From: Escherichia phage SHEFM2K
Reading direction: 5' to 3' (one strand)
Sequence record: PQ390715.1
Length of the DNA stretch: 64,000 nucleotides
Under the pieces are notes generated by a model that ran no database searches, was not told the DNA's origin, and was given only the letters and a program-made list of their open reading frames with translations. Positions 61,576-64,000 of the stretch are shown piece by piece. Every line of letters starts with the position of its first letter. Position 1 is the stretch's first letter. The position numbers and the translations under genes were made by a program.

Positions 61576-63000
61576 TTAACTACGTTGACGCTTTTTATCA
61601 GCTTCATATTCGTAGTGTACAGTCTCACCAAATGGTGCAACTTTATTTGGGTTACTGTGAATCACGAACAGTGTTTTACAGTAGTTTGGATCACCCCATG
61701 ACTGCCACGGTTCACCATCAGTAAACATTACAAGCTGTTTAGGCTTGTAGTTGTCGTTCTTCATATGAACCCATACTGCTTCAAAGTCAGTACCACCACC
61801 ACCTTTTACTGGATATTCCAGAATCTTACGTTCTTCGCCAGTTTTGTAATCCTTTACAGTATAAACTTCAGTATCAAAAGTCATGATACGAATCTTAAAC
61901 TGTTTGAATTGTTTAGTGATGCCAAGAACTTCACTAATGAAATCACGAAGCATATCTTCAGAAATAGACCCAGAAGCATCTAGTGCAATCGCAATATCAA
62001 TATCATCATCTGGTTTCATCCCTGGGTAAATTGGATTACCATAGAATGAGCCATTAGAACCAAAACCTGCACCCCAAGAACGACGATTCGGATTTTGATA
62101 TGTTGCATCAGACTTCAACCAACTACGAAGTGTACGTTGAAGTTTTGAACGCCAGTCAATCTTTGGTTCTTTAAAGTTGTTAATCATACGAGCGATTTCT
62201 GCTGGTGTACCACCTGCACGAGCAGCATTCATCATTGCTGTTTTGAAATCATCCATGTAATCACGTTTTTGCTGTTCACTTGAACCACCCTCTTGACCTT
62301 CTTGTGGAACGTCATGCTGGTCAATGGTAGTACCTTTTGGTTTACCCTTACCATCTTTAATATCGCCAAAAGTACCGCGATTTTTACCTTCACCTTCACC
62401 GCCGCCACTTTGTGGTTGACCTTCACCTTCACCATCTTCTTTTTGTTCTTCTTCTTCAAGAAGAATGTAAATCTCTTCTGCGGTCATGCCTTCATATTTT
62501 TTATCATACAACCATGAACTTTGGATTTTCCCAATTTTCTCACGAACGATGATTTGGTTAATGGCATAATCCGCTGCACGGTTATAACGTTGTGGATCAC
62601 GCATACCACGACGAAGGAAGTGATCGTAAGCACAGTGTAGAATTTCATGACAAATTACAGCAACAAGGTTTTCATCAGTCAAACCTTCAGTCATTTCTTT
62701 TAATTGTTCGTCTGTAACTTCAGGGTGCTTTTCACGAATAGCTTCTTCATATTCTTTCTTTTTAGATGGGTCTTGAATGCCCATTACAAATTCTACGTTG
62801 TAGAATAGATGTTTACCATCCACTGCTAGAGTACGACACCATGTATTATTAGGAACTGGACGTAAACGTGAAGCGAGTACACCAAAGAATGGTGCAGTTA
62901 ACATCAAAGATGTACGAGCCAGAACCAGACGTTCTTGACATTCTTTCTGGAGTGCCGGAGATACTTCATTGAATCTTGAAGTAGATTTGTTATCTGACAT
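61576..63000 (-). CDS. Metallopeptidase-motif (HEILH) + von Willebrand factor A (MIDAS D-x-S-G-S) protein, MoxR-partner type, 474 aa
   Basis: N-terminal VICHEILHCAYDHF (HExxH); central Gly/Glu-rich linker; C-terminal IAIALDASGSISEDM (MIDAS) ... FTDGEP; adjacent to a MoxR-type AAA+ gene. Confidence 0.7.
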   Translation of the reverse strand: MSDNKSTSRFNEVSPALQKECQERLVLARTSLMLTAPFFGVLASRLRPVPNNTWCRTLAVDGKHLFYNVEFVMGIQDPSKKKEYEEAIREKHPEVTDEQLKEMTEGLTDENLVAVICHEILHCAYDHFLRRGMRDPQRYNRAADYAINQIIVREKIGKIQSSWLYDKKYEGMTAEEIYILLEEEEQKEDGEGEGQPQSGGGEGEGKNRGTFGDIKDGKGKPKGTTIDQHDVPQEGQEGGSSEQQKRDYMDDFKTAMMNAARAGGTPAEIARMINNFKEPKIDWRSKLQRTLRSWLKSDATYQNPNRRSWGAGFGSNGSFYGNPIYPGMKPDDDIDIAIALDASGSISEDMLRDFISEVLGITKQFKQFKIRIMTFDTEVYTVKDYKTGEERKILEYPVKGGGGTDFEAVWVHMKNDNYKPKQLVMFTDGEPWQSWGDPNYCKTLFVIHSNPNKVAPFGETVHYEYEADKKRQRS

Positions 63001-63074
63001 GTATATTTCCTCGTTTAGTTAAGATAAAAGAAGGATACCATTAGGCATCCTTCTTGTCAACAACTCTTTGTTAA

Positions 63075-64000
63075 TTAGCCAAGAGAGCGTGCTTTACGTA
63101 CAAGATCAGAGTACTTAGCGATGAAATCTTTAAACGCTGGTACATCTTTAATGGAAATCGCAACCTTATGAAGCGTGATGGTACGAATTGCCAGTACTGC
63201 CAGTTCTGCTTGAGTTGCAGAGAAGTTATGGTCTAGGAAGGTGATGAAGTTGTTACACAGTTTACCCCATTCTTCCACTGGTAGACGTTGTTCTTGCTTC
63301 TCATTGAACAGGTCGATAATTTTATAAACCAAGTTCAGAGTGATAAAGTAGTTCGCAGAAATATCCAGCGTTGCGTCGATTTCTTTGATTTCACCAGACA
63401 GAATAGACATAGTATCTGGTAATTTAGCAACGTTCTCAACGTACTCAATGTATTCAGTTGCAACACCTTCACCAACACGACCAGCAATCATTGCACGGAA
63501 CACTTCTTTATCAATTGTCTTAGTTTTCTTGAGATCTTCGTAGCGTGCTACTGCTTCCCATGAACGTGGAGAAGTACCACCACTGTGAGAAGGATCTTGT
63601 GGACTAAGTGTGTTAAAGTACTTAGAACCAGTGTTGTTGATGAACGCAACAGTTGCTGGGTTCAAACGTTTTGCAATCGCATAATCGTTAATCCAATCTT
63701 GATGATAAGGAATCATCTCAATGTGAGTCATACGGTCACGCAGTGGTGTAGCAAGAGAGAAAGTTACACCGCCATCAGTTTCACGGTTACCTGCTGCAAG
63801 AATCAGTGCAGTCTTAGGTAGCTTCATCTCACCAACACAACGGTCGAGGATTAGCTGATAAGACGCTGCCTGAACAATAGGCATTGCAGAGTTAATTTCG
63901 TCAAACAGAATAACACCTTTCCAATCTTCGGACAATTTCAGAACTTTAGGTGCAGCCCATACTACCGCAGTTTCAGCTACATAATCTTTTGCTTCGGCAA
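63075..64000 (-). CDS. MoxR-family (AAA_5) AAA+ ATPase, C-terminal portion; N-terminus with Walker A lies beyond the window end
   Basis: Walker B ILFDEINSA, then ...KLPKTALILAAGNRE...ATPLRDRMTHIEM parallels the MoxR pattern DEINRA...LP....VLATQNP...L..A.LDRF; the frame appears to continue to the window edge. Confidence 0.7.
   Translation of the reverse strand, partial: AEAKDYVAETAVVWAAPKVLKLSEDWKGVILFDEINSAMPIVQAASYQLILDRCVGEMKLPKTALILAAGNRETDGGVTFSLATPLRDRMTHIEMIPYHQDWINDYAIAKRLNPATVAFINNTGSKYFNTLSPQDPSHSGGTSPRSWEAVARYEDLKKTKTIDKEVFRAMIAGRVGEGVATEYIEYVENVAKLPDTMSILSGEIKEIDATLDISANYFITLNLVYKIIDLFNEKQEQRLPVEEWGKLCNNFITFLDHNFSATQAELAVLAIRTITLHKVAISIKDVPAFKDFIAKYSDLVRKARSLG

Follow-up and report, generated by a model that had tools for sequence, protein, structure and literature searches.

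What use would a jumbo coliphage have for a probable MoxR-class ATPase and a protein that joins an HExxH motif to a von Willebrand factor A (vWA) domain, the genes of both lying next to each other among its structural genes? The question is raised by the stretch of DNA analysed here, 64,000 nucleotides (nt) of Escherichia phage SHEFM2K (PQ390715.1; hereafter the window), at the end of which (61576-64000) the two genes are found on the minus strand. Profile comparisons identify the pair as the Rak2-like jumbo-phage orthologues of the module formed by gp24 and gp25 of phage N4, i.e., an ATPase and a putative HExxH/vWA adaptor-peptidase. An ATPase with intact motifs is here genetically locked to a protein in which both the metal ion-dependent adhesion site (MIDAS) and the HExxH are intact. 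Both open reading frames (ORFs) of the initial annotation, which had been made from the DNA letters alone, were found at their positions on the minus strand, together with the Walker B ILFDEINSA, the HEILH and the DASGS that it had picked out. The pair and its domains are as follows:

63075..>64000, minus strand: ATPase assigned to the MoxR class of AAA+ proteins, C-terminal 307 of 441 residues, with Walker B, sensor-1 N, Arg finger, sensor-2 R and a C-terminal helical lid/extension.
61576..63000, minus strand: partner (putative adaptor-peptidase), 474 residues, DUF2201_N (HExxH, putatively zincin-type) and DUF2201 (vWA, complete MIDAS), from Pfam.
62071..62967, minus strand: putative metallopeptidase region, N-terminal, residues ~12-310, from Pfam, alignment and the predicted model.
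62281..62454, minus strand: Gly/Glu/Lys-rich segment, residues ~183-240, variable in length and predicted to be disordered, from alignment and the predicted local distance difference test (pLDDT).
61606..61998, minus strand: vWA domain, residues ~335-465, with the MIDAS residues D341-A-S343-G-S345 (nt 61966-61980), T404 (61789-61791) and D428 (61717-61719).

Pfam assigned the partner to two families in N-to-C order, DUF2201_N (PF13203, "putative metallopeptidase"; E=2e-35, 123.2 bits against a cut-off of 23.2) and DUF2201 (PF09967, "VWA-like"; E=7e-21, 75.1 bits against a cut-off of 26.4), both above threshold, which answers the profile check that the initial annotation had proposed; the corresponding orthologous group is PHROG 1314 (E=7e-128), and an NCBIfam search gave no meaningful match. 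The HEILH occupies residues 118-122 (nt 62635-62649), within a predicted long helix (residues 109-129) that follows three short strands. Both motifs survived correct alignment: residues H118, E119, H122, D341, S343, S345, T404 and D428 were invariant in 26 relatives, the most distant of which shares 41% identity with the window protein. D144 was invariant as well and H127 nearly so, and these two are candidate third zinc ligands. As the HExxH is invariant across the family, it points to peptide-bond hydrolysis. In the predicted model of the partner (mean pLDDT 76) both ends are confident, an N-terminal α/β domain with the HExxH helix and a C-terminal vWA domain; between them come a disordered insert, where pLDDT falls under 50 for residues 192-221 and 232-238, and a helical segment. 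Fold searches confirmed the vWA fold, with its complete DxSxS...T...D motif, and searches of PDB sequences, both single-sequence and profile, returned marginal integrin I-domain matches only. The Gly/Glu-rich linker described in the initial annotation is real, although it lies inside the DUF2201_N region and not exactly between the peptidase and the vWA domain. Within this low-complexity insert we observed an island, D227-x-H229 (TIDQHD; residues 227-229, nt 62314-62322), that was invariant in the same 26 relatives; a role as an additional metal ligand, in latency or in processing is conceivable.

The ATPase frame is open from 63998 down to 63075 (stop codon 63077-63075) and continues past the window's end, as had been noted initially; the ~134 N-terminal residues beyond that end, which include the Walker A, were recovered from the phage record OR844650 (locus L049:6576-7901:-), 100% identical to the window over positions 59000-64000, and it is in this full-length copy alone that the Walker A of the window phage is read. 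The full protein has 441 residues and a Walker A GSPGIGKS, separated by ~125 residues from the Walker B, which lies in the segment GVILFDEINSA and has the acidic pair D167/E168 (residue numbers follow the window protein and that of Escherichia phage 121Q; those in our alignment A2 are one higher). The motifs GxPGIGKS, hhhhDE, AAGN, DR and PRSW (Walker A, Walker B, sensor 1, Arg finger and sensor 2) were invariant, in AAA+ order, in 27 ATPase relatives. The corresponding group is PHROG 1297 (E=1e-81). No direct Pfam match backs the MoxR label of the initial annotation: the window fragment matched nothing in Pfam, and the full-length 121Q ATPase scored below the cut-offs of AAA_5 (15.6 bits, cut-off 22) and AAA_3 (16.7 bits, cut-off 27) and only just reached generic AAA (21.3 bits, cut-off 21.2). 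We ascribe these missed AAA_5 and AAA_3 cut-offs to the divergence of the Rak2-like ATPase together with its two insertions. The label is nevertheless supported by less diverged relatives, and fold ranking leans the same way: among the aligned relatives 16 of 27 matched AAA_5, 11 matched bpMoxR and seven matched AAA_3; hhalign joined the family profile to a chromosomal ATPase that itself matches AAA_5 (42.6 bits) with a probability of 100 (E=2e-57); and the closest folds to the AlphaFold model (mean pLDDT 83) were dynein AAA modules, CbbQ, NorQ and midasin, with Hsp100-type ATPases scoring nearly as high. PDB sequences gave generic Walker-A matches only, by single-sequence as by profile search. 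A motif after strand β2, FRLSQIEPSDLRGIP, may resemble a signature of MoxR proteins. The two insertions are found at residues ~55-95 and ~117-145 of the Rak2-like ATPase and are missing in the shorter relatives of alignment A2 and in N4 gp24; the first, beyond the window, is a helical hairpin that follows the Walker A helix, and the second, within the window only at ~63960-64000, lengthens the β-hairpin before the Walker B.

Both members of the pair are linked to N4 by hhalign, the ATPase to gp24 over 281 columns (probability 99.9, E=5.5e-36) and the partner to gp25 over 357 columns (probability 99.9, E=1.1e-35); in both phages the ATPase gene comes before that of the vWA protein, and gp25 has its HExxH as HELWH and its DxSGS as DTSGS. 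Both N4 genes belong to the 14-gene core of the N4-like phages (Schitoviridae) and are transcribed as middle genes (PMC4193335; PMC2784036). The partner is widespread, with at least 2,899 relatives in a large protein collection, at least 596 stretches of IMG/VR, and tblastn matches to the vWA-peptidase protein in 754 of 50,697 deposited phage records; it occurs in Rak2-like, N4-like, rV5-like and PA5oct-like phages and in PBS1. Association of the two genes was assessed in 80 viral loci (L052-L131) and in 19 loci from bacteria or metagenome-assembled genomes: the ATPase gene was present in 79 of the 80 and in 69 of these ended no more than 300 nt upstream of the vWA gene, and in 17 of the 19 the match was preceded, at 1-3.3 kb and on its own strand, by an AAA_5-type ATPase gene. 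Some of the cellular pairs are in ordinary chromosomal surroundings, e.g., in Chromatiaceae; the Rhizobiales loci have neighbours that, read by eye, resemble a sliding clamp and a methyltransferase, which suggests that these are prophages. Looser arrangements also occur. In the rV5-like phage APCEc02 (locus L005, 440-1917, minus strand) the ATPase (gp151/gp152) is annotated as two ORFs, of 97 and 351 residues, 3 kb away from the vWA gene and on the opposite strand, and in the PA5oct-like phages PA5oct and Paride three small ORFs and a putative homing endonuclease of 498 residues separate the two genes. The product of the gene directly upstream of the vWA gene in rV5-like phages, gp158, annotated as "HNH endonuclease", was considered as a candidate ATPase and rejected.

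Over positions 59000-64000 the window matches Escherichia phages ECO103 4-12-1 and EC22.5-2 at 100% identity and, at 99.5%, 121Q, a Rak2-like jumbo coliphage (Asteriusvirus, ~350 kb). Counterparts of the pair in 121Q are annotated as "ATPase" (gp563) and as "HNH endonuclease" or "Zn-dependent hydrolase (T4-gp25-like)" (gp564). By the 121Q annotation most of the window consists of structural genes (capsid, portal, baseplate, tail fibres), with the pair embedded among them; other non-structural genes are scattered through the same region (a ClpA-like protease, a late sigma factor, SbcCD-like genes, a NUDIX gene and thyA). Virion proteomes of two jumbo phages list the ATPase. Mass spectrometry of phAPEC6 virions detected the orthologue gp265c with 6 peptides and 19% coverage (PMC7247149), and the PA5oct record flags its ATPase, EST35_0335, as "ESI-MS/MS". 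The same phAPEC6 list contains gp262c (1 peptide), the orthologue of the 218-residue protein p218 encoded downstream of the pair, and ThyA, gp259c (3 peptides) (PMC7247149).

CbbQ/CbbO, NorQ/NorD and midasin offer an analogy for how such a pair might work. The ATPase would form a hexameric ring and dock the vWA protein, the MIDAS metal would bind a client protein through one of its acidic side chains, the client would be remodelled by ATP hydrolysis, and the HExxH domain would then cleave it, or the adaptor itself. The likeliest class of client would be phage-made assemblies that mature from the middle phase on, i.e., virion-associated complexes. We tentatively favour this reading, ATP-driven remodelling and proteolysis with virion-associated phage assemblies as clients, as possible and as the best we can offer, because of the position of the genes among structural genes, the two proteomic detections and the precedent of Acidianus two-tailed virus. 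It coincides with the chaperone/co-chaperone and peptidase model put forward for jumbo phages of this kind by Iyer et al. 2021 (PMC7824862).

Several observations weigh against this reading. The partner gp264c is not in the phAPEC6 virion protein list (PMC7247149) and the PA5oct partner is not flagged "ESI-MS/MS" in its record, so that in two jumbo phages the pattern is the same, ATPase listed and partner not; the presence of ThyA in the phAPEC6 list means that carry-over of abundant proteins is possible. Fold searches with the partner model gave, among the matches listed, only vWA folds and no zincin fold, and we found no experimental study of the pair in the literature. The 1.2 kb upstream of the ATPase gene contains six matches to the σ70 consensus (at least 11 of 12 positions; L049 8098-9234, with the gene starting at L049 7901), all on the strand of the gene. 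Four of them fall inside upstream coding sequences; the 313-bp region directly upstream of the start has two (shuffle P ~0.0005). In all 64 kb of the window there are only four, no more than chance predicts. These matches suggest that the embedded non-structural genes may be transcribed early or middle by unmodified host RNA polymerase; the T4-type late promoter TATAAATA showed no enrichment in the window, with 6 sites where 9.9 were expected, and was of no use for gene timing. Neighbouring genes elsewhere add to the case: the N4 pair is followed by gp26 (dCTP deaminase), gp30 (ThyX-like) and replication genes and lies outside the late structural block (PMC4193335), a topoisomerase gene adjoins the pair in PBS1, and in an uncultivated clade the pair stands beside a gene that, read by eye, is 5'-3' exonuclease-like. 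The promoter matches and the N4 and PBS1 neighbourhoods would fit the same machine acting early or in the middle phase on host proteins or on the replication and nucleotide-metabolism apparatus, in takeover or in the upkeep of replication complexes, and not on virion proteins. Taken by itself we hold this to be somewhat unlikely, and because of the N4 middle-gene context and the promoter array we regard it as nearly as plausible as a virion-assembly client. Thymidylate-synthesis genes that recur near the pair count in its favour as well (thyA in the window, ThyX in locus L002, dUTPase and thymidylate synthase in Delftia phage RG-2014 (PMC5735904)), as do the cellular homologues in ordinary chromosomal contexts, where there is no virion to build. 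The nucleotide-metabolism role suggested in the initial annotation is based on neighbourhood, and the neighbourhood does recur; however, such neighbours may just mirror placement in a middle block, thyA lies within 10 kb of the pair in only 11 of the 80 viral loci, the ATPase was detected in two virion proteomes, the pair sits among structural genes in this genome, and early expression is compatible with an assembly chaperone.

Other explanations fare worse. The counter-defence role also proposed in the initial annotation, in which the pair would sense or destroy a host immunity protein or form a MoxR-vWA conflict system as in Kaur et al. 2020, gained no positive evidence and seems to us improbable: while MoxR-vWA pairs are the cores of ternary conflict systems (PMC7159879), 11 of the 27 ATPase relatives match bpMoxR and a peptidase-vWA fusion would fit targeted protein destruction, PADLOC searches with five proteins of the locus gave nothing significant (marginal matches of the ATPase to IetA, E=0.023, and TRIP13, E=0.027, and nothing for the other four). 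Moreover, no third component of the VMAP/FtsH type and no effector array accompanies the pair, which alone is universally linked, p218 and the 86-residue p86 encoded beside it having no Pfam match; it is a core gene set of N4-like phages (PMC4193335), conserved in sequence and synteny, unlike typical anti-defence genes, which are patchy and fast-evolving; and in the loci examined the cellular copies lie outside defence islands. A metal-cofactor insertase or enzyme activase that serves thymidylate synthase or ribonucleotide reductase without proteolysis, in the manner of CobS/CobT, BchI/BchD, NorQ/NorD or CbbQ/CbbO, might be read into the recurrent thymidylate-synthesis genes and is more improbable still. 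ThyA has no need of a metal cofactor by established enzymology, the invariant HExxH points elsewhere, and neither protein matched CobS_N, CobT or CobT_C (E≤1 for the ATPase, E≤0.01 for the partner), Mg_chelatase being marginal and confined to the Walker A region; nor were there chelatase or cobalamin genes among the neighbours examined. Orthology to CobS/CobT, which the initial annotation had named as a finding that would overturn it, is thereby excluded. RefSeq, PHROG 1314 and many phage records label the 474-residue protein an HNH (homing) endonuclease, which is almost certainly wrong: nothing but the labels speaks for it, no HNH-family Pfam match was found, the full length is taken up by DUF2201_N and DUF2201 with a confirmed vWA fold, other depositors name the protein a metallopeptidase, VWA protein or N4 gp25-like, and the gene is syntenic and conserved, not a sporadic insertion. 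The "HNH endonuclease" or "homing endonuclease" label appears to be an annotation error that is spreading through databases. A bolder version, which we consider unlikely, would make the pair an ancient, essential ATP-dependent protease of at least five unrelated virulent phage families and of bacteria, acting early to middle on a common client (a host protein or a component of replication or nucleotide synthesis) and not in virion assembly, with p86 and p218 as adaptor, regulator or substrate in Rak2-like phages and the uncultivated clade, and D227-x-H229 as a latency or autoprocessing element.

Downstream and between the two genes, the locus contains the following features, in the order of transcription:

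63060-63032, minus strand: promoter-like TTGACA-N17-TATCCT, overlapping the hairpin of the next line and preceding the vWA gene (consensus scan only).
63055-63028, minus strand: terminator-like hairpin with a 12-bp stem and T-run, between the ATPase and partner genes (consensus scan only).
61542..61563, scored on both strands: terminator-like hairpin with a 9-bp stem, directly 3' of the vWA gene.
61528-61501, minus strand: promoter-like GGGACA-N16-TATAAT, preceding the 86-residue gene.
61221..61481, minus strand: p86, 86 residues with an acidic C-terminal tail, PHROG 13789, no Pfam match.
60562..61218, minus strand: p218, 218 residues, PHROG 15894, no Pfam or PDB match.
59965..60558, minus strand: SLOG/DprA-like protein, 197 residues, PHROG 768 (E=1e-26); Pfam YAcAr (E=5e-4) below cut-off.
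59036..59965, minus strand: ThyA, 309 residues, Pfam Thymidylat_synt (E=6e-102).
59033-59004: strong terminator-like hairpin, 3' of thyA.

The operon with thyA that the initial annotation had drawn stands as a same-strand cluster, but as an uninterrupted transcription unit it is doubtful: terminator-like hairpins (63055-63028 and 61563-61542) and promoter-like sites interrupt it. ORF clustering across the 80 viral loci gave a usual order of ATPase, vWA-peptidase, p86 homologue and p218 homologue; where enough downstream DNA was available (62 loci), a p218 homologue was present in 59 and a p86 homologue in 50. Hidden Markov models built from loci of the distant clade alone recovered the window's p86 (E=2.9e-14) and p218 (E=7.5e-35). 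Judged on these homologies, the four-gene block is conserved in Rak2-like phages and in a large uncultivated phage clade and is lineage-specific. We had considered p86 and p218 as a universal third partner and rejected this, no homologue of either being found beside the pair in N4, PBS1, APCEc02 (rV5-like), ABPH49 or PA5oct (hhalign probability at most 1.2%); because they are absent there, in rV5-like and PA5oct-like phages as in N4 and PBS1, the universal module consists of two genes. The layout of p218 is a conserved N-terminal domain of ~110 residues, a variable linker and a conserved C-terminal helix, and its profile retrieved nothing from PDB. The SLOG-like neighbour named in the initial annotation keeps that assignment weakly, through PHROG and not through Pfam; the neighbour families that the distant clade has in common with the window do not include it, and the Rak2-like loci L052-L054 have an unclustered ORF of 200-218 residues at the corresponding place. 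The end of its ORF and the start of thyA share coordinate 59965, which suggests translational coupling of the two.

Elsewhere in the window we made a few further observations. A ClpA-like ATP-dependent protease gene (38170-40479, minus strand) lies amid tail and baseplate genes as a second AAA+ chaperone/protease in the structural region, and two of the window's four σ70 matches (40526 and 40758) precede it. The baseplate-hub lysozyme gene and the gp6-like wedge gene are 1,038 bp apart in the window (23583-24621) but 1,775 bp apart in 121Q (314095-315870), consistent with the absence from SHEFM2K of the 765-bp intron-associated HNH endonuclease gene of 121Q (gp584). On the plus strand, 50583-56108 encodes a tail-fibre protein of 1,841 residues, the orthologue of 121Q gp571, with long internal Ser/Thr/Gly/Val-rich repeats when read by eye.

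The module is already known as annotation and as in-silico interpretation, since the GenBank record of phAPEC6 labels both genes ("MoxR ATPase" for gp265c and "N4 gp25-like protein" for gp264c) and Iyer et al. 2021 describe the pair. It is not mentioned in the text of the PA5oct paper, nor in the RaK2, CBB, Sharanji and CRISPRi-ART papers or a 2026 review of jumbo phages. The window alone adds nothing new in kind. New here are the hairpins that part the pair from thyA, the four-gene block, the six upstream σ70 matches and the virion pattern of ATPase without partner; in addition, the scattered labels "ATPase", "HNH endonuclease", "Zn-dependent hydrolase" and "gp25-like" are united in one family. 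Assigning a client would fill a gap in phages that serve as models or are relevant to therapy, namely N4-like, rV5-like, Rak2-like and PA5oct-like phages.

Set against known systems, the pair differs from N4 gp24/gp25 in size and place: the N4 proteins are shorter (352 and 380 residues) and have neither the two ATPase insertions nor the long Gly/Glu-rich insert, and their genes belong to a middle-gene block for replication and nucleotide metabolism, whereas those of the window are embedded among structural genes. Cellular DUF2201 modules, e.g., sll7029/sll7028 of a Synechocystis plasmid (the origin of the "Sll7028/Sll7029 protein" names), have the same two families in the same order; however, their ATPases are of ~340 residues and above the Pfam AAA_5 cut-off, and their contexts are chromosomal or prophage-like. 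With CobS/CobT and BchI/BchD, including phage cobS/cobT, the likeness is one of general AAA+ and vWA architecture; unlike CobS/CobT, the window pair has an HExxH domain, no CobS_N, CobT or CobT_C match, and no cobalamin or chelatase context among the neighbours examined. CbbQ/CbbO and NorQ/NorD (CGN group MoxR proteins with large vWA partners) activate or metallate one specific enzyme, their partners have no HExxH, and the sequence similarity of CbbQ and NorQ to the window ATPase is too low for the Pfam AAA_5 cut-off. In Acidianus two-tailed virus, likened here by its description in the sources cited, p618 (MoxR) and p892 (vWA) are a virus-encoded pair tied to extracellular tail development (PMC7824862, PMC7159879), although the host is archaeal and the vWA protein has no peptidase domain (PMC7824862). 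Closest of all are the "group 2.2" jumbo phages of Iyer et al. 2021, for which the relevant passages of that paper make no mention of N4 gp24/gp25 or early-type promoters (PMC7824862). These passages describe a MoxR AAA+ ATPase with a vWA co-chaperone fused to an N-terminal metallopeptidase and propose, on computational grounds, a role in virion assembly with peptidolytic processing (PMC7824862); by that description the pair matches the one in the window, with no difference in kind (PMC7824862).

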